NCBI GenBank assembly: GCA_016840515.1
Contig: JAEOSF010000001.1
Location: 50,447-82,446, forward strand
From: Candidatus Borrarchaeum yapensis
Lineage (GTDB): Archaea; Asgardarchaeota; Sifarchaeia; Borrarchaeales; Borrarchaeaceae
Length of the DNA: 32,000 nucleotides
Direction: 5' to 3'
The notes beneath the pieces were generated by a model. The model was given only the letters and a program-made list of their open reading frames with translations, searched no databases and was not told where the DNA came from. The position numbers were made by a program, and so were the translations under genes. Positions 4,249 to 20,869 of the stretch are shown piece after piece (position 1 is the stretch's first letter; each line of letters opens with the position of its first letter).

Positions 4249-4459
4249 GTTACTACCTCCATATAGGTCTATTCTTATGTTCACTGTGTCAGTTTTCTTG
4301 AGTACTTGCTGCACTTTTTAGAATTCATCCTCTAATAATCTTGTTTTTTTAAAATGTTTTTCGATGAGTTCAATGAGTAAAAAATAGAGTATTTATTGAT
4401 TTATTTTAGTAATATTAGAATAAAAAAAAAGAAGAAAGAAAGATTTAGTTGGGCTATCG

Positions 4460-8264: not shown

Positions 8265-9458
8265 TTATCCGCGGATGCGAACCACCTCAGGGTGCGCCAT
8301 CACCCAGTTATCCCTCTCCACCATGCGTGGACCTGGGAATATCGGATTTGAAAGATTAGCCACTCCATTGACATCAGCATTGAGAACTTTATTAGCTGTT
8401 TTGCATACATATAAACCACGGTGTTTTCGACCATTTCTATGTCTTTTACCGCAAAGACTACAGGTTTGAGAGGTCCAACTTTCGTCTATCGTTTTGACAA
8501 TCATCCCAAAATTCTCGGCTGTTATGTTTAACCGATCGACAATATAGCGAAAACTCCAGAAGTTATGGATCATTGCGTTGGTTTTTTTCCCCTTATCATT
8601 ATCCACTCGGATATGGGTTAAATCACCTACCGATATTTCAGAAACACCCTTCTCATAACAGTCCTTGACGAATCGATAGATCATAGTGTTGATGCCCTGT
8701 CGAAATCTCCGTTTCCTTGTCCGATATAACTTGTTTAGTTTTTTTGTGGGCCTAGGTTTCCCTCCTAATTTCCTTTGATAGTTAGCTATTTGTTTGTTCC
8801 AATACCACCAGTCACTCAACAACGACTTCCCAGAATAGAGTTTCGCACGAGTATCACCTTCAGTATAAGTGGTGAGGACATTGATCACTCCCAGATCGAT
8901 GTACGCCTTCTTGTTTCCTAATGGTTGATGTAGAGGTGTGCACTCTACTGGTTGATAGGCATACCATCCTTTCGAGAGCATATCAAAGTGAATTTCAAGA
9001 CGTCCTTGTTTTCCATGCCAGTTTAAGTTTCCATGGTAGGTAATCGCTAATTTATTGGGCAACAAAAGCCGTCTGGCTTCAAATTTATAACAATCTGTAC
9101 GTATGAGTGACCTTAAAATTCGCTTGCCTGTTTTTCGATCTTTCCAGTAGCCAGGAGGTCTAATGACCTTGATATGAGGAGACAACTTCCCCTGCTTCTT
9201 TTTTCTTAAAAGTGCAAAAAAGGATTTCCAAGCCTCATTATTCTTGCGGATGATCTGTTGCGTTGTTGCAGAACCGATCTGAGGTGAAAAGTCCTGATAT
9301 TCTTCAGTGGTATCCCAGTCTAGAGTTCCATCGAAGAAGGATTGTCGCCGCTTAAAGGTTATTTTATTCCATAAGACAGAAGATAACGTGCATAAGGCAA
9401 ATAGTTTTGCCTCTTGATCCTCATCAGGAACTAATTTAAGGATATTAGTTCTTCTCAA
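8265..9458 (-). CDS. tnpB: TnpB / IS605 OrfB-family RNA-guided endonuclease
   Basis: 397 aa. N-terminal 'ILKLVPDEDQ...', RuvC-I 'AYIDLGVINVLT', C-terminal 'WTSQTCSLCGKR...' Zn-ribbon and RuvC-III 'NADVNGVANL'. The second Cys pair of the ribbon looks degenerate ('YVCKTANK'). Confidence 0.9.
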   Translation of the reverse strand: MRRTNILKLVPDEDQEAKLFALCTLSSVLWNKITFKRRQSFFDGTLDWDTTEEYQDFSPQIGSATTQQIIRKNNEAWKSFFALLRKKKQGKLSPHIKVIRPPGYWKDRKTGKRILRSLIRTDCYKFEARRLLLPNKLAITYHGNLNWHGKQGRLEIHFDMLSKGWYAYQPVECTPLHQPLGNKKAYIDLGVINVLTTYTEGDTRAKLYSGKSLLSDWWYWNKQIANYQRKLGGKPRPTKKLNKLYRTRKRRFRQGINTMIYRFVKDCYEKGVSEISVGDLTHIRVDNDKGKKTNAMIHNFWSFRYIVDRLNITAENFGMIVKTIDESWTSQTCSLCGKRHRNGRKHRGLYVCKTANKVLNADVNGVANLSNPIFPGPRMVERDNWVMAHPEVVRIRG

Positions 9459-11300: not shown

Positions 11301-12545
11301 TTATTGTACCGCTTCTGCAAGAATTTCTGCAAACTTATAGACTTCTTCAAAAGTATTATATAGGGGATATGGCGCAACACGGATTATATCAGGCTCCCTC
11401 CAATCAACGGTTACCCCCCGATCTATCAACGTATCAAATAATTTCTTACCGTTTTTGAGAGTTCGAATTGAGAGTTGGCATCCTCGCTCATTAGCTTTTG
11501 AAGAGGTAATTATCTCGTAATTTTCAGGGCCTAATTCTTTTATCAAATACTCTAAATAGCCAGTCAATAACTCCCTTTTCTGATGAAAAAGAGATAGATC
11601 AAGCTCATCCCAAATGTTTAAAGCAGCTTTCAGACTTGCTAATAAAAGCACAGGATGTGTACTTATTTGCCAACCCGAAGCCCCAAGCGCTGGGTTAATG
11701 TCTGGCTCCATTAGGAACATCGTTTCACGTTTACCACCCCACCAGCCATCAAATCGAGGGAGATCTTTTTCAAAGTGGCGTTCATGTACGAAACATGCAC
11801 TTATTCCGCCAGGACCTGCATTGATGTACTTATAATTGCACCAAACGGCAAAATCTACATTCCAATCATGTAATTCAAGAGGGATATTTCCTACTGCATG
11901 TGCCAGATCGAAACCAACAACTGCCCCTTTTGCATGGGCTGCTTTAGTGATGGCTTCCATATCAAACGCTTGACCTGTAAGATAGTTAACTCCAGAAAAA
12001 AGGACTAAGGCGATAGATTCATTTATTGCATCAATAATGTCTTCTGTCCTGAGAATTGCTTCTCCGGGCCTAGCCTTAACTTCTATCAAAGAATCATTAA
12101 TTTCATGACCATGAAAACGGATTTGGGATTTAAGAGCATATTCATCACTAGGAAAAGTATGTTCTTCAATCAATATTCGATGTCTGTTTGTTGTTGTAGG
12201 ACAGAAAAAACTCACTAGAAGAAGATGAAGATTGACAGTCAAACTGTTCATGATTGAAACTTCTTCAGGCTGGGCACCTATAATACGTGCCATACTTTTA
12301 ACTAAATCATCTGAGTAAGAAAACCAGTTTTTAGACCCATGAAACCATCCTTCAACGCCTATCTCCTCCCATGTCTTAAGGATTTTGTCTATTTCAGTTC
12401 TTGCTGTTTTTGGTTGAAGACCTAATGAGTTGCCACAAAAATAGATTATGGAGTTGGGATAGTGGAACATTGTTCGAAATTTAGCTAATGGATCCGCCAA
12501 GTCCAGTTCTTTTGCAAACTCTAAACTTCGCTCAAATTCGATCAT
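11301..12545 (-). CDS. kynU: kynureninase (PLP-dependent)
   Basis: 414 aa. 'IYFCGNSLGLQPK', 'FDLAHAVGNIPLELHDWNVDFAVWCNYKYINAGPGG' (PLP-Lys in YKY), 'DWREPDIIRVAPYPLYNTFEEV'. These are collinear with bacterial and eukaryotic kynureninases. Confidence 0.9.
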   Translation of the reverse strand: MIEFERSLEFAKELDLADPLAKFRTMFHYPNSIIYFCGNSLGLQPKTARTEIDKILKTWEEIGVEGWFHGSKNWFSYSDDLVKSMARIIGAQPEEVSIMNSLTVNLHLLLVSFFCPTTTNRHRILIEEHTFPSDEYALKSQIRFHGHEINDSLIEVKARPGEAILRTEDIIDAINESIALVLFSGVNYLTGQAFDMEAITKAAHAKGAVVGFDLAHAVGNIPLELHDWNVDFAVWCNYKYINAGPGGISACFVHERHFEKDLPRFDGWWGGKRETMFLMEPDINPALGASGWQISTHPVLLLASLKAALNIWDELDLSLFHQKRELLTGYLEYLIKELGPENYEIITSSKANERGCQLSIRTLKNGKKLFDTLIDRGVTVDWREPDIIRVAPYPLYNTFEEVYKFAEILAEAVQ

Positions 12546-12589
12546 GAGTTAATCACATATTTTGAGTATTTGATTAGGCTGTACTTCTA

Positions 12590-13477
12590 TTATTCATTTT
12601 TTAAAAGAAATCGAGGGAATTTCATCGCACTCTTAACTCTGTTTTCAAATATGCCAAGTTCTCTGACTCCAAAGCCCATTGAAAGCCCCAAAAGTTGCGG
12701 TAGATGAAGAACGGGGATGTCATAGTCGAGTTCCCAGAGTTCTTTAACCTTGATCTGATTTAAATCGAGGCTAAGAGAGCAGAACGGGCAGATAGTTATG
12801 AGCGCCTTAAGGGCTGCATCATGCGCAGTAGATATTATACGATGTGTCAGACGCCAAGCGACATCTGGGGCATTACTTAAGACGGGGGCTCCACAGCAGG
12901 ATATTTTTCCTTCATAATCTGATGCAATTGCTCCAGTAAGATTAATGATTTCATCCATATGCAGTGGTCGTTCAGGGTCTCCGTGATGTGTAATTTCAGA
13001 GGGGCGAAGCATGTGACAACCATAGTATGCTCCAACCTTAAGTCCGTCTTTAAATGGTATTTTAAGATGTTCCTTTATTCGTGGCAGTCCAACATCCTCA
13101 TAAAGAATTTTGAGAAAATGTTTAACTTCAAGTGTGCCATTATATTCTAGGTCAAAGTCTGATAGAATATTGTTAATATCTTCCCTTGCAGCATTATCTT
13201 TCTTTAAGTATTCATTTGCATGCATGATCGAACCTACGCAGCCGTTACATAAACAGCAAATATCTAAGTCCATTTTTTCAGCTGTAGCTAAAATTCTTGC
13301 CGACAACAATGTCCAATATTGTTCGTCCATTGAACGAACAATGGGTGAACCACAACATCCCGAATTAGGGAGATCAATCAGTTCTACACCTAGTTCCTTT
13401 GCAACTACACGGGAAGAGGCTTCATACCCGTTCATTTTTTCGGGAATAGTACAGCCTAGAAAAAGCGCATACTTCAC
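12590..13477 (-). CDS. hdrB: heterodisulfide reductase subunit B (two CCG domains)
   Basis: 295 aa. 'YALFLGCTIP', 'SGCCG', 'CCLCNGC', 'YYGCH', 'ISCCGAP', 'ICPFC'. The GTG start overlaps the hdrC stop by 1 nt. Confidence 0.9.
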   Translation of the reverse strand: MKYALFLGCTIPEKMNGYEASSRVVAKELGVELIDLPNSGCCGSPIVRSMDEQYWTLLSARILATAEKMDLDICCLCNGCVGSIMHANEYLKKDNAAREDINNILSDFDLEYNGTLEVKHFLKILYEDVGLPRIKEHLKIPFKDGLKVGAYYGCHMLRPSEITHHGDPERPLHMDEIINLTGAIASDYEGKISCCGAPVLSNAPDVAWRLTHRIISTAHDAALKALITICPFCSLSLDLNQIKVKELWELDYDIPVLHLPQLLGLSMGFGVRELGIFENRVKSAMKFPRFLLKNE

Positions 13478-14019
13478 TATTTTTCACCAGTTTCTTCTTC
13501 AGGGGGTTTATAATGGACTAATTTGGTGAATTTAATCTTTTCTGCTAGTTTTCGCATTATATCTGCGTCAGGAGTAGGCAATTCAGGGAGTTTGAAGCGA
13601 GTTTGACGTATTTTATTTTCATATTCACCCACTTCATTCATTAAGCCAAAAGTTAAGATGTTAGCCGCGATATCTGACCATACGCTAGGTATAATGTTTT
13701 CTTTCGCTGCCATGTTTCTAAGGTGAACGAAAATTTCTGGAGGTTTTACATCTTGAGGACAACGCTCCTCACATACATAACAGCCTGTACATAACCAAAT
13801 GAGCGGGTTGTGCAGTACTGCTTCTCTATCACCTAACATGATAAGCCGAATGATATTTCTCGGACTGAATTCTTCGCCACCGAACCGTGCTACAGGACAG
13901 CTACCCGTGCATGTCCCGCACTGGTAACAGGCAAAAAGGTCAAATGAAAGGTCCTCGATAAATTCCTCTGCGAGGCTCAAGTCTAGATCTGAAAGCTTCA
14001 CTACTTTTTCAGTTTCCAA
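13477..14019 (-). CDS. hdrC: heterodisulfide reductase subunit C (2x[4Fe-4S])
   Basis: 180 aa. 'CYQCGTCTGSCP' and 'CTGCYVCEERCP'. Confidence 0.9.
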   Translation of the reverse strand: METEKVVKLSDLDLSLAEEFIEDLSFDLFACYQCGTCTGSCPVARFGGEEFSPRNIIRLIMLGDREAVLHNPLIWLCTGCYVCEERCPQDVKPPEIFVHLRNMAAKENIIPSVWSDIAANILTFGLMNEVGEYENKIRQTRFKLPELPTPDADIMRKLAEKIKFTKLVHYKPPEEETGEK

Positions 14020-14022
14020 GTT

Positions 14023-14472
14023 CTATTCCTTCTTCGCTTCCTCTACTTCTTTCTTTACACGCTCAATTTCGGCCAGTTGCCATTGGACAAATTCGTTGGT
14101 GTCACCTTTCATAAGTTTTGAAAGGTCTGCCTCCAAATTAGATGGGCTAATCTTGACCATCCAACCTTCGCCGTATGGATCAGTATTGACAAGTGAGGCA
14201 TTATCCCACAACCCTTCATTGAATGCAGTAACTTCACCTGCGACTGGGGCATAAATTTTGCCTGTCCACTTGCCGCTTTCTAGTGTTCCAAAAGGTTTCA
14301 TAAACTCTACCGTCTCACCTTCAAAAGGCAATTGCACAGCCTGAATTTTTTCAGCCATGGTTTGCGCAAAATCGGTCACGCCAACCACAACAATATCTCC
14401 TTCTACTCTTGCCCAAGAATGTTCAGTTGTATAATATAATTCATCTGGGAGATCATAATCTTCAATTTTCAT
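14023..14472 (-). CDS. gcvH: glycine-cleavage H-protein-like lipoyl carrier
   Basis: 149 aa. 'YTTEHSWARVEGD...VGVTDFAQ' and 'LESGKWTGKIYAPVAGEV' (the lipoyl-Lys position is conserved). SD 'aaggag' lies upstream. Confidence 0.88.
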   Translation of the reverse strand: MKIEDYDLPDELYYTTEHSWARVEGDIVVVGVTDFAQTMAEKIQAVQLPFEGETVEFMKPFGTLESGKWTGKIYAPVAGEVTAFNEGLWDNASLVNTDPYGEGWMVKISPSNLEADLSKLMKGDTNEFVQWQLAEIERVKKEVEEAKKE

Positions 14473-14532
14473 TTTTACATTCTCCTTTTCAATTTATGAA
14501 ATTGTTTTTTTTCAAAGGTTATATATAAGAAG

Positions 14533-14549
14533 CATCCCTGCGTAGGGAG
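14533..14549 (-). other. second small hairpin in the hdrA-gcvH spacer (minus RNA: CUCCCU-ACGC-AGGGAUG)
   Basis: 5-bp G/C-rich stem (UCCCU/AGGGA) with a 4-nt loop, directly 3' of the SECIS candidate. Function unknown. Confidence 0.3.
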
Positions 14550-14558
14550 CCAGTCCTT

Positions 14559-14587
14559 CTCTCAGTCCCTAAAGGGTTTCCCGAGAG
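14559..14587 (-). promoter_or_regulatory. candidate archaeal-type SECIS element in the hdrA-mvhD 3' region
   Basis: Minus-strand RNA is 5'-CUCUCGG-GAAA-CCC-UUUA-GGG-A-CUGAGAG-3'. It has a 7-bp lower helix, an asymmetric internal loop with GAA(A) on the 5' side and A on the 3' side, three G-C pairs and a 4-nt loop. It starts 4 nt after the final stop of the Sec gene. Confidence 0.7.
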
Positions 14588-14590
14588 AGA

Positions 14591-17500
14591 TCATTCCATT
14601 TCAGTTCGAGATATACGCGACGGATTGGGTCCAAGTTTCGAAATACTTTCGCCAAAGGTTTGCATTGCTTCTCTAAATTTTTCTGCTTCCGCGGATGAAA
14701 GGAAGTACATTACAGTTCTGCCTTCACCAAAACCCATAGTTTCAAGAAGTTTTTCAGCCAACTCAACAGACTTTTCTGCTTGTAAGTTTCCATCAATATA
14801 TGCACAGTCGCCTTTGTGTCATCCGACTACGGCGACACCGTCTGCGCCGAGTGAAAACGCATTAAGCAACCATGGAGTATCAATACGACCTGTACACGGC
14901 ACCCGTATAATTCGAGTTCGATAGTCATATTGAAGTTTTGAAAGCCCAGCTAAGTCTGCAGCACCATACCCACATTTTTCACAAGCAAAAACAAGAAGTA
15001 ATGATTTTTGCTTGCTTTCAGCTAAAAGTGATTCAATTTGTGGATAGAATTGCTCATCTCGCCAGTATCGAAGTTCTCTAGCTCCAGAGGGACATGCTGC
15101 AACGCATGTGCCGCAGCCCTTGCATTCAATTTCATCAGTAACCGAAACAAGTCCTCCTGCTTCAGTTTCTTTCGTAGTTATAGCATCGTATGGACAGGCG
15201 ATTACGCACACCTTACATCCGCTACAAAGATTCTCGTCACATACAGCCTTGATTAGTTCAAGTTGAATCTCTTTTTGTTGTAACAGTACGCCTGCTGCTG
15301 ATGCCGCTGCTTTACCTAGTACTATTGAGTCGCTTATGCTTCGTGGAGAAAGAACAGACCCTGCTACGTAAACGCCATCTTTTCGTGTTTCGACAGGTTT
15401 GAATTTTATGTGGATAGGCTCAAGAAAACCATCAGAAGAGCGAGTAACTCCTGTTATCTTACACAGTTCATCAAAGCCTTCAGGAGGTTCTTGCCCTACC
15501 GCTAGGACTACATAATCTGTGTCTATCTCGAATGTAGTTCGTGAAAGGGTATCGTATACTTGCACCATAGCATTTTCATTGTAGATTGCCGTAACCATCG
15601 GGGGTCTTTCTTCTGTCCATCGCATAAAATTGGAGCGATATTGTTTTCTTGTAGTTAGATAGAACTCTTCCATATACCTTCCGACAGGTCGCAAATCCTC
15701 CTTAAAGAGGACAAAGGTTTGACAGTTCGGAAAGAGTTCTTTCACGGTCTGCGCATTTTTCAGTGAGGCACCGCAACAAACACGAGAGCAGTATTTGTTT
15801 CCATCTTCTTCTCGTGAGCCAACGCACTGAATGAAGACAACACGTTTTGGTTCTTGATCAAAACTGCGCGTTTTAAGCAATTCCTCGAATTCAAGAGAAG
15901 TTACCACTCGTGGAACAGTATTGTAACCGTATTCGCCGTCCTTGGGAGAATATGTATTTGTTCCGACAGCTATAATTATAGCGCCAACGTTAATATCAGT
16001 GTTTTCTCCATTAATTCTCCTAATTTGTGTTGTAAAATCACCGATGTGACCATCAAGGGATTCCAATGAAGACTCAAGGTAAACCGAGATATTGGGAGCA
16101 TTAGATATCTGCGCTGTTAATTCATCCAAAATTTGGCTGGCTTCAGTTTTTTCTGGAAACACTTTGTAGAGAGAATTGAGACGACCACCAAGTTGAGAAT
16201 CTTTTTCCACGAGGTGAACATTGAATCCTTGATTAGATAAATCAAGGGCAGCCGACATTCCAGCAATTCCACCACCAATAATAAGAGCTTCATTGACAAC
16301 TGAAACCGTCCGATATGGCACAATCTCAAGATGTAATGCTCGTGCAATGCCAGCCCTGATCAAGTCCTTTACTTTTTCTGTGGCTTCTTTTTTTGTCTGC
16401 ATATGAACTTGCGCTGCCTGATCTCTTATGTTCACGTATTCAAGATAATACTTACTTACTCCAGCAGACTCTAAAAGAGTCCTAAATGTTTCTTCGTGAA
16501 GTAAAGGTGAACATGCTGCTACTAAAACCCGATTAATATTGAGTTCCTTTATCATCTCGCTGATTTGCTGTTGTCCTGGCTCACTACAGAAGAACTCATT
16601 GTTATCTACATAGATCACGCCAGGTAATGTCTTTGTATATTCCATGACTTCTGGTACGTCAATGTAATTTGCGATATTGCCACCGCAGTGGCATACAAAC
16701 ACGCCAAGTCGAGACTCATCGGTAACTTCTTCCTTTGTTTGAGGCGCATATGATGTTATGTGTGGTGGAGAACCAGATAAAAGGTTCACTGCAGACGATG
16801 CAGCAGCTCTTGCTTGAGTAACCGTATCCACAGCATCTTTTGAGCCTGTTGCCACTCCCGCGATAAAGATTCCATGTCGATTTGTTTCGATTGGATGATA
16901 ACTGTTGGTTTCAAGAGGAAATCCATCACCGCTAATTTTAATGCTTAATTTTTGGCATAGTTCATGTGTCCCTTCAGATGGAACAAATGAACTAGATAAG
17001 ACAACAAGGTCGATATTTTTGACCTGAGAAACTTCTCCAGTATTAGTATCTTCAACCCAGACAATCAAGTCTTTTGTTTCTTCGTTTTCTTGAATTTCCG
17101 CCACTTTACCGCGAATTAAATTAGGATTATAGCTATTCTGTGTGTCCCTGTAGTATTCTTCGTAAAGTTTTCCTGAGGATCTTATATCTATATAGCAAAT
17201 GTCTGCCTGTCCTTTTCCTTTTGATTGCAGTTTATAGGCTCTAGCTTGTTTTAATGCGAACATACAGCAGACTCGGTTACAGAATTTGTTGCCGACTTCC
17301 TTTTCACTTCTAGAGCCCACACATTGGACCCATAATACCCTGCTTGGTTCTTTCCCATCAGAAGGTCTCACTATCTTGCCATTAGTAGGACCTGTGGGAT
17401 GCATCATTCGTTCAAACTGAAGTGATGTAACAACGTTTTCGTAGTATCCATAGCCAAATTGTTTCAATGGTGTTGGGTCGAATTCATCAAAACCCGTGGC

Positions 17501-18076
17501 TACAATTATCGAGCCAACATTGATTTCGATGATCTCTTCGGCATCAACAAAGTTTATTGCTTCCGCAGGACACTCCATCTCACACATTCCACAATCTATG
17601 CACTGCTCCTTATCTAATCTAGGGATCTGGGGGACTGCCTGAGGAAAAGGAAGATAAATTGCTTTTCGTACACCTATACCCATATCGTATTCTGAAGTCA
17701 CTTCAACTGGACATACTTCAAGGCATTTTTGACATCCTGTACATTTGTCTGAATCGACATATCTAGGGCTTTGCTTGAGTTTTACCGTAAAGCTTCCTGA
17801 TTCACCATTTACCTCTAAAACTTCGGTTAGAGTAAACAAGCGAACATTGTCGTTTCTGGCAACGCTTGACATAAGTGGTGTAAGTGGTCAAGCCGAGCAC
17901 TCATCGGTCGGAAAGATTTTGTAAACCTGTGAAAATCGTCCTCCAATTGTTTCTCGTTTCTCTACTAGAAACGCCGTATAGCCTTGATTTGCAATATCTA
18001 GCGAAGCATACATGCCAGCCATTCCGCCGCCAATCACCAAGACACTTTCTGCCGCTTTACTTTCCAATGCATTCAT
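14591..18076 (-). CDS. hdrA: heterodisulfide reductase subunit A (tandem HdrA modules) fused to an MvhD domain. Selenoprotein with two in-frame UGA (Sec) codons at 17888-17890 and 14819-14821
   Basis: Three collinear in-frame pieces: 18076-17891 'VLVIGGGMAGM...FPTDECSA', TGA, 'PLTPL' plus the 1017-aa ORF, TGA, then 75 more codons 'HKGDCAYIDGN...FLSSAEAEKFREAMQTFGESISKLGPNPSRISRTEME' to TGA 14591-14593. Both TGAs replace Cys of conserved motifs (FPTxDCSxC and GCHxGDCxY). AGGAGGT SD precedes ATG 18076. There are several ferredoxin-type CxxCxxCxxxCP motifs and two GxGxxG FAD motifs. Confidence 0.85.
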
Positions 18077-18260
18077 TTAACGAACCTCCTACTTAGTGAA
18101 CACCTCCAAACTACCATAACTTAATGTTCGGTTGCTTTTATTCAATTCTTCTTTGATAATGTCAGCGTAATGCACTTCAAAATTATAAAAAAAGGTGGGG
18201 GCAACTGATGAGCACATATATCCCTATACACTTGTAATACTTGGTTAGATATTTGTCACA

Positions 18261-19448
18261 TTAGCGATAACTGTCAACTACACCTGCTGAATAGGCAACA
18301 AGTCTTGGCAATTCTAAAACGCGAATGCGTTCTCTGTAAGCCCTCATTCCAATTGAATGATGACACGTAGGGCAAGTCGTGAGAATATATTGTACACCTA
18401 ACTTAGCTGCGTCTTTGACAATTTCATCACTTAGATCGTTTCTTAGTTCAGTGTATGGTACACGGATCGGTCCACCGCAACATCTCGCGTCTCCTTTTGT
18501 TTCTGGTAACTCAACGAACTCAATACCTGGAATACTTTCTATGATCTTCCGAGGAGGGTCGTATTTAAGTGCGTATCTCCCGAGATGGCATGGATCCTTG
18601 AAGGTAACCTTTCCCTCAAGGGGTTTCGTCATTTTTATTTTACCATCATCGATTAAACGTTCAAGCACTTCCGAAATATGATATGCTTTTGGAGTATCCG
18701 GAGAGATTGCTTTATACTCCTCATTGAAGACTGAAGCGCACATCGGACATGCTGTGATTATAGTCTCAATCCCTCGCGATTTAAAGAGTTCGATGTTTTT
18801 CTTAGCAGCTTTCTCAAAATATGGTTTGAATCCTAACCAACTAAGAAATCCTCCGCAACAACTCTCTGAATCGAACATCGTAAACTCTTCTCCAGCGGCT
18901 TTCAAGAGTTTAACTCCCGCACGTGAATTATCGGGATAATCAATAGTCCCTACACAACCAGCGTAATAGAGCGTTGAAGATTCCTTTGGTAAGGTTGCTT
19001 TTATTTCGCCAAAAACCTCGTTGAACACGACAGGATAATCCATTCCATGGGTATTTCCTTTCTCAAGAATGCTGTCAGCAATACCCCTATGCTCTGAAAG
19101 CGTATAATTGTTGTCGGCTAGATATTCACGCACGCGATCCATAACGTCTACCACTTTTATTTTTGCTGGACAGTGTTCCTCACACTTTTTGCACAATGTG
19201 CATGTGTAAAGAATTTCCATTGCATAATCATCAACGGGAAATCCTCCTTCAATGAGAGCTCGCTCTAGCATGATCCTTCCTCGACAGTTGTAACTTTCCA
19301 TCTGTGTAGCATCAAAAATCGGACATGCAAACCTACAAAATCCGCATCGTACGCATCTGTATGTTTCTGTTTCAGCATCAGCGTCAATCCTCATTTTCTT
19401 ATGTTTTGGTTTAAGCATTGTACCCGAAACTACATCTTCTTGTGTCAT
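18261..19448 (-). CDS. glcF: GlcF/HdrD-like Fe-S oxidoreductase (2x[4Fe-4S] plus two CCG domains)
   Basis: 395 aa. 'CVRCGFCRFACP', 'CTLCKKCEEHCP', 'YYAGC', 'SCCGG', 'ACPMC', 'DPCH', 'ARCCGG', 'TCPTC'. The start is 2 nt after the upstream gene's stop. Confidence 0.85.
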   Translation of the reverse strand: MTQEDVVSGTMLKPKHKKMRIDADAETETYRCVRCGFCRFACPIFDATQMESYNCRGRIMLERALIEGGFPVDDYAMEILYTCTLCKKCEEHCPAKIKVVDVMDRVREYLADNNYTLSEHRGIADSILEKGNTHGMDYPVVFNEVFGEIKATLPKESSTLYYAGCVGTIDYPDNSRAGVKLLKAAGEEFTMFDSESCCGGFLSWLGFKPYFEKAAKKNIELFKSRGIETIITACPMCASVFNEEYKAISPDTPKAYHISEVLERLIDDGKIKMTKPLEGKVTFKDPCHLGRYALKYDPPRKIIESIPGIEFVELPETKGDARCCGGPIRVPYTELRNDLSDEIVKDAAKLGVQYILTTCPTCHHSIGMRAYRERIRVLELPRLVAYSAGVVDSYR

Positions 19449-19450
19449 CT

Positions 19451-20869
19451 CTAGTCATCCTCCAAGATGTTAATTCTTTGGCCTGGAATTGGTAATACGT
19501 GACCAGGGCAGAAAATATTTTTAGGATCAAATGCATTCTTGATCTTTTTCTTTAATTCTAACACTTTAGGTTGGTGTTCAACGGGCATCATCATAAGTTT
19601 GGAAACACCAATTCCATGTTCCCCAGTGACCGTCCCTTCTAATTCAACTGCTGCATGCCACAAGTCAACTAATGTTTGTAGGGCGCGCCTATGTTCATCA
19701 GGATCTCGTTCATCCCACAAAAGTATAGGATGAAGATTTCCATCTCCTGCGTGACCGAATGTGGCAATTTCGATCCCATTCTTTTCGCTTACTCTATCAA
19801 TCTCTTGGAACATCGTCGGTAGGTTTTTTAGAGGTACTGATACGTCTTCCATTCGTGCAGTTGGCCGTCGAAGTGTTAGTGCTGGAAATGCAGCCTTTCT
19901 AGCTGCCCAGACTTGTGTACATGTTTCCAGATCTCGTGCTGTTTCGGATTTGATTGCTCCCATCTCTTTGAACAAATCTTCCAGTTTATCTAGCCGCATC
20001 TCAACGTCATCTCTATTCCCATCTAATTCCACAAGGACAACAGCTCCGCATTCGGGGAATTTTAAGGTTCCTGAATATTCTTCTACTGCCTTAAGTGTCT
20101 TGTAATCAAGAATTTCTGTTCCTGAGGGGTCAAATCCTCTTTTAATGATTTCTCTGACGCACTTTCCTGCTTCAAAAGCGGAATTGAAATAGCCACTAGC
20201 CACGAGACGGACTGCTGGCAAAGGTTGAATTTTGAGCATTGCCTTGGTAATAATACCCAGAGTCCCTTCTGATCCTACAAAAAGTGAAACAAGATCGTAG
20301 CCACAAACAAATTTAATTGCTTTATTGCCGATATTAACGACACTCCCATCTGATAGGACGATTTCCAAGCCCATAACCCACTCTTCGGTGACTCCATATT
20401 TAAGTGCACGAATTCCGCCGCTATTATTATTTACCATACCGCCAATTGTAGCTGTTTTGTCCGATGCTGGATCCGGCGGAAAGTAAAATCCATAGGGCTC
20501 TAAGTAGGTATTGAGGTCTAGACACACCATACCAGGCTCAACGGTTATTAGAAAGTTCTCAACATCGAGATCTACAACCTTGTTCATCCTTGCGACCACC
20601 AAAATCAAACAATCAGGCTTTGCAGGGATGACACCCCCGCTAACGTTGCTTCCAGCCCCTCTTGGAATAATTGAGAATCCTTCTTCATTAGCTAGCTTCA
20701 CGATATCTGCGACCTCTTCTGTGGTATTAGCAAAGGCCACGGCTGCTGGCATACCTGTATCAATGCTAGCATCGCGTGAGTAAATATACAGATCGATTGC
20801 ATGATTTAAAACATTGTTTTCTCCAACTATTTTTTTCAGGGCGGGAATGATTGTGCCCTGCCAATCCAA
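19451..20869 (-). CDS. glcD: FAD-linked 2-hydroxyacid oxidase/dehydrogenase (GlcD / D-lactate dehydrogenase family)
   Basis: 472 aa. FAD_binding_4-type N-terminal half ('IIPRGAGSNVSGG', 'TVEPGMV...L') and C-terminal 'FGHAGDGNLHP', 'GTVTGEHGIG', 'DPKNIFCPG'. Confidence 0.88.
   Translation of the reverse strand: MDWQGTIIPALKKIVGENNVLNHAIDLYIYSRDASIDTGMPAAVAFANTTEEVADIVKLANEEGFSIIPRGAGSNVSGGVIPAKPDCLILVVARMNKVVDLDVENFLITVEPGMVCLDLNTYLEPYGFYFPPDPASDKTATIGGMVNNNSGGIRALKYGVTEEWVMGLEIVLSDGSVVNIGNKAIKFVCGYDLVSLFVGSEGTLGIITKAMLKIQPLPAVRLVASGYFNSAFEAGKCVREIIKRGFDPSGTEILDYKTLKAVEEYSGTLKFPECGAVVLVELDGNRDDVEMRLDKLEDLFKEMGAIKSETARDLETCTQVWAARKAAFPALTLRRPTARMEDVSVPLKNLPTMFQEIDRVSEKNGIEIATFGHAGDGNLHPILLWDERDPDEHRRALQTLVDLWHAAVELEGTVTGEHGIGVSKLMMMPVEHQPKVLELKKKIKNAFDPKNIFCPGHVLPIPGQRINILEDD

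Follow-up and report, generated by a model that had tools for sequence, protein, structure and literature searches.

A candidate selenocysteine insertion sequence of the methanogen vhuD type behind a two-UGA HdrA-HdrA-MvhD fusion gene in a Borrarchaeal Asgard archaeon

The locus described here raises the question of which RNA signal could direct the reading of two in-frame UGA codons of one long archaeal gene as selenocysteine (Sec). The gene lies on the minus strand of a 32,000-nt stretch of Candidatus Borrarchaeum yapensis DNA (contig JAEOSF010000001.1, positions 50,447 to 82,446; this whole stretch is the window, and all positions are given in its coordinates) and encodes a fusion protein in which two HdrA-like flavoprotein modules precede a C-terminal MvhD/FlpD domain. 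An earlier note, made from the sequence alone, had placed a candidate archaeal-type Sec insertion sequence (SECIS) immediately 3' of this gene. Our analysis leads us to assign a probability of about 85% to the reading that the element at 14551-14598 on the minus strand is the SECIS of the HdrA-HdrA-MvhD mRNA and a homologue of the Methanococcales vhuD SECIS. The SECIS itself is a known kind of element; what is new is a vhuD-type SECIS in an Asgard host and in a new gene context, of which this is the clearest Asgard example.

By the protein similarity of its relatives, the host of the window is an Asgard archaeon (Borrarchaeum/Sifarchaeia) and not a methanogen; the nearest relative is Candidatus Borrarchaeum weybense, at 91% amino-acid identity, and two further metagenome-assembled genomes of Borrarchaeota/Promethearchaeota show 69-70% protein identity to the fusion-gene locus. 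The Sec machinery and tRNASec are reported to be complete for the Borrarchaeum lineage (PMC9723677) and both UGAs fall at methanogen Sec positions, which supports the SECIS assignment. UGA2 is TGA in all six orthologous loci, and UGA1 in five of six, the sixth contig ending short of the site. No Cys-encoding orthologue of the fusion was found among the three genome loci and three true metagenome orthologues, all of which have UGA; only a distant Cys-type HdrA-MvhD fusion turned up, with no spacer after its stop. Public gene calls cut the fusion gene into products of 62, 1017 and 48 amino acids (aa). The MvhD domain is 52% identical to VhuD of M. jannaschii and 49-50% identical to Asgard paralogues, values from which no direction of transfer is evident. 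The coordinates agree with the spacing proposed in the earlier note: the gene stop, TGA, lies at 14591-14593 on the minus strand (the end reads ...AUG GAA UGA), 118 nt separate the gene from the gcvH ATG (14470-14472), and the two UGAs lie upstream of the element at distances of ~230 nt (UGA2) and ~3.3 kb (UGA1).

Read on the minus strand, the region is ...GGA AUGA UCU CUCUCGG GAAA CCC UUUA GGG A CUGAGAG AAG GAC UGGCUCCCUACGCAGGGAUGCU..., and RNAfold reproduces the structure that had been drawn for it, with a lower helix of 8 uninterrupted pairs, a GAAA/A internal loop and three G-C pairs capped by UUUA; a second hairpin follows. Extended to ten positions, the main stem contains 7 Watson-Crick pairs, two wobbles (G.U and U.G) and a single C.A mismatch, with a G+C content of ~50%; in one orthologue (L003) all 10 positions form standard pairs with zero mismatch. 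Flanking the stem, the GA of a 3' GAC stands opposite the GA of AUGA in a tandem G.A/A.G arrangement resembling a kink-turn, and an outer helix only three pairs long may close the structure: its G-C pair is invariant in 9/9 sequences, the next pair is G.U, G-C or A-U, and the third, U.G in the clade of the window, is U-A in that of L002 and L003. RNAfold predicts this outer helix in 3/5 methanogen elements, weak support for so short a helix, and from these features we infer a putative kink-turn geometry for the element. The folding energy is unremarkable against shuffled sequences (z between -0.9 and -2.0), so that it is the motif, its position and its conservation that carry the evidence for the element, and not the stability of the fold.

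A strict archaeal-SECIS pattern (GAA(N), 3 G/C pairs, a loop of 3-8, A, and a lower stem of at least 6) has 1 match in both strands of the 32 kb, against ~0.005 expected from Markov-shuffled sequence, and a relaxed pattern returns the same single site in the window. A covariance model, R1, was built from five Methanococcales vhuD SECIS elements only and run over the window with filters off; its E-values are rough, since the calibration was shortened. R1 gives one strong, full-length match, at 14545-14600 (34.3 bits, E ~2.4e-8, model positions 1-54 of 54), treating the extra A of GAAA as a 1-nt insertion, and the next-best match in the window scores 11.2 bits. The likeness to the methanogen 3' untranslated region (UTR) SECIS consensus claimed in the earlier note is thus borne out and can be narrowed to the vhuD subtype: R1 detects neither the methanogen hdrA SECIS nor the Borrarchaeal frhD and selD elements described below, and therefore the resemblance is specifically of the vhuD type. 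R1 was limited to vhuD elements; a joint MAFFT alignment of vhuD and hdrA SECIS misplaced the 3' arms.

Other signals were looked for in the same DNA. No relevant Rfam family reached its gathering score in the window, and no SECIS family appeared at E up to 10 in 14000-18500; this null is uninformative, as a methanogen control locus shows that no Rfam model detects the vhuD SECIS. A bacterial-type hairpin just 3' of the UGAs is not indicated, the RNA there folding no better than shuffles (z -0.4 at UGA2, -0.8 at UGA1). A stem around UGA1 (GCUUGAC...GUCAAGC) was rejected: it is no better than shuffles, and the codons beneath its 3' arm differ in orthologues. Also dismissed, as a chance hit, was an R1 match of 11 bits at 4284-4334, which overlaps a start region (ribosome-binding site plus ATG) that follows a permease gene. 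A loose pattern of AUGA, stem, A-rich loop and GA occurs 16 times in the window and 18.7 times in shuffles; because it is no commoner than in shuffles, AUGA/GA alone is no evidence. One place that fits the loose pattern is 19187-19231 (-), inside the HdrD/GlcF-like gene (ATGA TTATGCAATG GAAATTC...GCA CATTGTGCAA AAA), and it is probably a chance match of the kind equally frequent in shuffled sequence.

For comparison with methanogens, hdrA-vhuD loci from five Methanococcales lineages were fetched by way of their Sec-truncated HdrA N-terminal fragments. All of the vhuD 3' regions have AUGA, 10 positions, GAA (AAA in M. voltae), CC(C), a loop, (G)GG, A, 10 positions and GAC/AAC, and the hdrA 3' regions have a like architecture; AUGA is invariant in the 5 vhuD and in 4 hdrA elements. 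The register of AUGA 5' and GAC 3' of the main stem is the same in the window element as in the five methanogen vhuD elements. In Methanocaldococcus the vhuD element reads gggAUGA GUUCUCUCGG GAA CCC GAAA GGG A CCGAGAGAAC AAC, and its window counterpart ggaAUGA UCUCUCUCGG GAAA CCC UUUA GGG A CUGAGAGAAG GAC, an identity of ~71%. This identity, the frame formed by the AUGA stop and the GAC, and the recurrence of the second hairpin go beyond what the earlier note had described. In a joint alignment of methanogen and Borrarchaeales elements, 94% of stem cells are paired (slid controls, 30-54%) and 7/10 pairs show compensatory change.

Like its counterparts in Methanococcales and Methanopyrus, the window element directly follows a VhuD/MvhD coding sequence, has its parts in the same order, is followed by a G+C-rich hairpin and may have a short outer helix. 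It differs from them in having GAAA and not GAA, in a stop codon that overlaps AUGA (as in Lokiarchaeota) and in its Asgard host; and whereas methanogens have a separate hdrA SECIS, here one element would also serve the HdrA-type UGA 3.3 kb away. In the fetched loci the methanogen vhuD elements occupy the vhuD-vhuG spacer, so a position between genes of an operon is nothing exceptional for a SECIS. The vhuD SECIS of Methanococcales and Methanopyrus were described as combining the archaeal GAA_A with invariant AUGA and GAC/AAC flanks, and have been proposed as the prototype of Lokiarchaeal and eukaryotic SECIS (Mariotti 2016, PMC4989117).

Conservation was followed through the six orthologous loci (genomes and metagenomes supplied three each), with proteins down to 69-70% identity. 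A block of ~75 nt of non-coding sequence is nearly invariant in them, from GGAAUGA through the second hairpin to UUAUAUAUAAC, with the last codons of the fusion gene on one side and the distal spacer on the other both diverging. Within the block, the apical loop is UUUA, UUUC or AAU on an unchanged CCC/GGG stem, one main-stem pair changes from C-G to U-G, and the positions beside AUGA pair better in some orthologues than in the window; changes of these kinds are tolerated by a SECIS. In three of the loci (L002, L005 and L006) the frame already closes with a UAA 9 nt before AUGA, and AUGA is still kept; it is therefore conserved for the RNA and not as a stop. R1 scores the Borrarchaeales orthologues at 30-39 bits. 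The parts of the element and their surroundings are collected in Table 1.

Table 1. Positions in the window of the fusion gene, the candidate SECIS and its parts, and the neighbouring features
Feature	Position	Strand	Basis
HdrA-HdrA-MvhD(FlpD) fusion selenoprotein gene (predicted), 1161 aa, two in-frame UGAs	14591..18076	-	translation; Pfam FlpD, Pyr_redox_2/FAD, Fer4
UGA1, predicted Sec codon, first HdrA module (FPTDECSA-U-PLTPLM)	17888..17890	-	aligned with the M. maripaludis HdrA Sec position
UGA2, predicted Sec codon, MvhD domain (VVG-U-HKGDC)	14819..14821	-	aligned with the second Sec of M. jannaschii VhuD
Whole candidate SECIS, from outer helix through GAC and the outer-helix 3' strand	14551..14598	-	covariance-model match; near-invariant in orthologue alignment
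UGG, 5' strand of possible short outer helix; partner CUG 14551-14553; AAU is a 3-nt bulge	14596..14598	-	putative kink-turn C helix
AUGA, 5' half of kink-turn-like core; its UGA is the gene stop	14591..14594	-	invariant in orthologues
Main stem, 5' arm, 10 positions (UCUCUCUCGG)	14581..14590	-	pairs with 14556-14565
GAAA, internal loop 5' side (archaeal GAA of GAA_A plus one extra A)	14577..14580	-	invariant in orthologues
Upper stem CCC/GGG, three G-C pairs, around apical loop UUUA (14570-14573)	14567..14576	-	stem invariant, loop variable
Lone A, internal loop 3' side	14566	-	invariant
Main stem, 3' arm (CUGAGAGAAG)	14556..14565	-	fold; covariation alignment
GAC, 3' half of kink-turn-like core	14553..14555	-	invariant in orthologues; GAC/AAC in methanogen vhuD
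Second hairpin (GGCUCCCU ACGC AGGGA-U-GCU), directly 3' of the SECIS	~14531..14551	-	RNAfold; conserved in orthologues
TATA-like box TTATATATAA, ~51 nt upstream of the gcvH ATG	14519..14528	-	conserved in 6 loci, spacer beyond variable
gcvH-like gene, then hdrC and hdrB	14023..14472	-	Pfam GCV_H, Fer4_8, CCG

The canonical euryarchaeal SECIS reportedly goes back to work by Wilting in 1997. In a recent description, the eaSECIS is a 3'-UTR element with a basal stem of ~10 pairs, a GAA_A loop with two essential A residues, three G-C pairs and a variable loop (Peiter 2025, PMC11881835). The window element, located by a UGA-containing gene, shares all of these: the 3'-UTR position, the ~10-bp basal stem, the GAA/A loop, the three consecutive G-C pairs and the variable apical loop. 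It departs from the eaSECIS in the extra A of the loop, in a basal stem of 50% G+C, and in the AUGA/GA frame, which the majority of methanogen SECIS do not have.

That same frame brings the element into the eukaryote-like class. For eSECIS-like type II structures, Huang 2024 (PMC11227280) specified a core GA_[G/A]A, an upper stem of 7-15 bp with at most 2 mismatches, a bulge, a ministem of 2-8 bp and an apical loop of 2-6 nt; the window element has a GA/GA core, a stem of 10 positions with 1 mismatch, the GAAA/A bulge, a 3-bp ministem and a 4-nt loop. In common with the Asgard eSECIS-like elements and the lokiSECIS it has AUGA over the stop, a stem of ~9-10 pairs, unpaired A and a 3' GA, it would likewise serve several UGAs as a single element, and its GGAAA fits the G[U/G]AAA reported for hdrA and frhD of Sif- and Borrarchaeales; it differs from the Asgard eSECIS-like elements in the exact GAA_A loop and the ministem of three G-C pairs. 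The eukaryotic type II SECIS (RF00031) is alike in its AUGA/GA quartet, ~10-pair helix, unpaired A, ministem and apical loop, and different in that the window element is much shorter, lacks the long helix I and gives no match to Rfam at E up to 10. No SBP2 is known in archaea (PMC9723677, PMC4989117).

The earlier note had suggested that other selenoprotein genes of the lineage should carry the same motif, and here the outcome is divided. The frhD paralogue of Borrarchaeales, a type I form, has AUGA CUCUUGAAAC GUAAACAUUGUG GUUUCAAGAA GAC, with the stop within AUGA and the same 10-position spacing as in the window element, and selD has AAUGA AAAAGAC AGAAA CC GCAA GG AG(G/A) GUCUUU (A/C)GA; in the B. 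weybense assembly an AUGA...GA element likewise lies 3' of the selD stop, and the published SelD protein has Sec (X) at its active site. In all three elements, those of the fusion gene, frhD and selD, a stem with an A-rich bulge on its 5' side is set in the AUGA...GA frame, and a hairpin follows downstream. The exact GAA/A loop with three G-C pairs is absent from frhD, which has neither GAA_A loop nor GC clamp, and from selD, and for this reason the exact methanogen motif is not universal in the lineage. The comparison argues that the Borrarchaeal machinery would read the AUGA...GA frame together with unpaired A residues, and that the window element additionally keeps a methanogen-type apical part. 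In the selD element itself (L021 3985-4030, L024 3985-4030) we note a 5' GAA, two C-G pairs, a GNRA-like GCAA loop and a 3' A, which look like a looser echo of the methanogen GAA_A motif within a eukaryote-like frame.

Several observations weigh against the assignment of the window element as a vhuD-type SECIS. The 5' side of its loop has 4 nt (GAAA), compared with 3 nt in the methanogen vhuD and hdrA elements examined; its main stem falls short of the published consensus in G+C, with one C.A mismatch and wobbles beside the core; and within Borrarchaeales only one-sided changes are seen, the compensatory ones coming from the methanogen sequences. Given frhD and selD, the exact GAA_A motif may not be what the Borrarchaeal machinery reads. 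In a survey of more than 400 Asgard genomes, 85% of the selenoprotein genes had eukaryote-like structures and only 3.4% had GAA_A-type ones, and nearly all of the latter were without consecutive G-C pairs, unconserved, never combined with AUGA_GA and likely non-functional (Huang 2024, PMC11227280). A Lokiarchaeal SECIS is non-functional in M. maripaludis (PMC11881835), so that inference across lineages is not automatic. The 3.3 kb to UGA1 exceeds any archaeal distance tested experimentally (up to 679 nt), and Sec insertion itself is something we infer from sequence and by analogy.

By analogy with reporter work in M. maripaludis and with eukaryotic SECIS, the folded 3' element would recruit the archaeal Sec-specific elongation factor carrying Sec-tRNASec, probably via an adaptor. 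Sec-tRNASec would then be delivered to ribosomes paused at UGA2 (~0.23 kb) and at UGA1 (~3.3 kb), both of which would be read as Sec, while the terminal UGA inside the structure would serve as the stop. The step over 3.3 kb is where a different account can enter, namely that the SECIS serves UGA2 only, and that UGA1 uses another signal or terminates, yielding a 62-aa product and a separately initiated 1017-aa product. The 679-nt limit of archaeal experiments, the separate SECIS of methanogen hdrA, an ATG 5 codons past UGA1, and the occurrence of the loose AUGA...GA pattern elsewhere in the window (e.g. at 19187-19231) all speak for such an arrangement, which we nevertheless regard as unlikely. 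UGA1 occupies the place where HdrA canonically has Sec, and all five orthologous loci long enough to include it have TGA there; the 62-aa piece holds the FAD-binding GxGxxG motif that belongs to the rest of the domain; neither the pattern nor the covariance model finds a second archaeal-type SECIS in the fusion gene or its 5' spacer; and the loose pattern, at 16 observed against 18.7 in shuffles, is what chance supplies. Further, Lokiarchaeal hdrA-vhuD pairs are reported to share one SECIS for up to six UGAs over ~2 kb (PMC4989117). Sec insertion at both UGAs, including UGA1 at 3.3 kb, is the predicted outcome for the window element.

The second hairpin, which the earlier note had put at 14533-14549, is recovered by RNAfold in a slightly longer form (Table 1), and in orthologues it shows one G-to-A change with pairing kept. 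A G+C-rich hairpin is present 2-7 nt past the GA in 13 of 15 SECIS 3' flanks from Borrarchaeales and Methanococcales (the window and loci L018, L021, L024, L025, L028, L031, L034 and L038), the 15 flanks belonging to the fusion gene, frhD and selD of Borrarchaeales and to vhuD and hdrA of methanogens, five groups of genes in all. Of random 30-mers drawn from the sequences concerned, only ~4% reach a fold as good as that of the second hairpins. These hairpins were assessed by individual folds, an alignment carried through them having given inconsistent columns. Several of their loops resemble UA(N)GCA or GUGA. We found no mention of a downstream hairpin in the main text of Mariotti 2016. With it, archaeal SECIS modules may have a second part that has so far gone unnoticed; insulation of the fold, protection of the 3' end and a share in the recognition surface are all conceivable roles.

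A pair of hairpins between two genes also invites the explanation that both are a terminator-like transcript end, or an mRNA-stabilising structure between the fusion gene and gcvH, without a recoding role. In a simple scan the second hairpin with its U-rich tail does look terminator-like, and the conserved TATA-like box after the hairpins would suit a transcript boundary. Archaeal termination, however, needs oligo-U, and no oligo-U terminator (no run of at least 5 U) follows the hairpins; the homologous methanogen element sits in a short vhuD-vhuG spacer; and a terminator leaves AUGA, GAA_A, the GC clamp, GAC and the 34-bit match to the vhuD model unexplained, which makes this explanation very improbable. 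From its sequence and placement, the TATA-like box may be an internal archaeal promoter belonging to gcvH; read-through into gcvH and an internal promoter are each conceivable. Scarcely credible is the notion that L7Ae or a relative binds the element as a kink-turn and that the element controls translation or processing of gcvH-hdrCB instead of Sec insertion: its AUGA/GA frame and 3-nt bulge do resemble a kink-turn and it lies 5' of gcvH, but its methanogen homologue is the vhuD SECIS, the same frame follows selD and frhD of the lineage with unrelated genes downstream, and ~80 nt separate it from the gcvH ribosome-binding site.

A wider statement can be made about the vhuD-type SECIS of the window, to which we give somewhat less than even odds: that one RNA is at once euryarchaeal (GAA_A with three G-C pairs) and eukaryote-like (AUGA...GA, type II), that it is functional, that it recodes a UGA at 3.3 kb and so beyond the ~2 kb inferred for Lokiarchaeota, that it acts with the downstream hairpin, and that it forms a physical link between Asgard and methanogen SECIS. 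Reviews of 2024 and 2026 hold that methanogen and eukaryote-like SECIS are dissimilar in both sequence and structure (that of 2026 seeing no similarity between the canonical archaeal and eukaryotic forms), that the eukaryote-like form is the one used by Asgard archaea, and that their few GAA_A candidates are probably non-functional. The window element has both forms at once, can be aligned base for base with the vhuD SECIS of Methanocaldococcus, and offers testable support for the vhuD SECIS as the prototype of the Lokiarchaeal and eukaryotic SECIS; it supports a descent or transfer linking Asgard and methanogen SECIS, contradicts the published generalisation on Asgard GAA_A structures, and fits, without overturning, the existing evolutionary hypothesis. 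It is predicted to function in the M. maripaludis reporter, where the Lokiarchaeal SECIS fails, and the determinants could then be swapped stepwise.

The fusion gene bears on the catalogue of Asgard selenoproteins as well. For B. weybense, the sequence files of Huang 2024 (PMC11227280) contain two selenoproteins each of the HdrA and FrhD kinds, none of which is this fusion, and four diagnostic fusion peptides, lying clear of the Sec sites, occur in none of the 87 files. An element like that of the window is likewise missing from the survey files. The fusion selenoprotein gene is thus probably uncatalogued; with the fusion missing from these files, the selenoprotein counts for the clade are incomplete.

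Among the methanogen loci, the Rfam model RF01737, 'flpD RNA', matches the hdrA-vhuD spacer of Methanocaldococcus lauensis (L031 5049-5096) at 45 bits, against a gathering score of 40. It falls exactly where the pattern scan places the SECIS 3' of hdrA (AUGA GGCACCAUCC GAA GGC UUUUU GCC A GGAUGGUGCU GAU). Rfam gives the 'flpD RNA' no label beyond cis-regulatory (Cis-reg); by this coincidence it appears to be the hdrA SECIS of methanogens, and in the literature searched we found no paper linking the terms 'flpD RNA' and SECIS. The hdrA SECIS covered by RF01737 and the window element are alike in their succession of AUGA, 10-pair stem, GAA, GC clamp, A and GA; the RF01737 model gives no match to the window element, nor to the vhuD SECIS of methanogens.

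The fusion gene is flanked upstream by a GlcD-like and an HdrD/GlcF-like gene and downstream by gcvH, hdrC, hdrB and an aminotransferase gene, so that the order across 11301-20869 (-) is GlcD-like FAD (flavin adenine dinucleotide) oxidase, HdrD/GlcF-like, Sec HdrA-HdrA-MvhD, GcvH-like, HdrC, HdrB and class V aminotransferase/kynureninase-like. A GcvH-like lipoyl carrier between hdrA and hdrCB recalls the sHdr-LbpA systems of sulfur oxidisers; here the GcvH-like/Hdr cluster adjoins a lactate-dehydrogenase-like module in an anaerobic Asgard archaeon. The 184-nt spacer 5' of the selenoprotein gene (18077-18260, -) contains seven T and then TATAA (CCTTTTTTTATAATTTT), which could be an archaeal terminator of the upstream gene and a promoter of the selenoprotein gene; given these, the 'operon' around the selenoprotein gene may consist of several transcription units. 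Elsewhere in the window, a 397-aa open reading frame at 8265-9458 (-) contains OrfB_IS605 and Cas12f1-like TNB domains, i.e. a TnpB-like transposon-associated nuclease.

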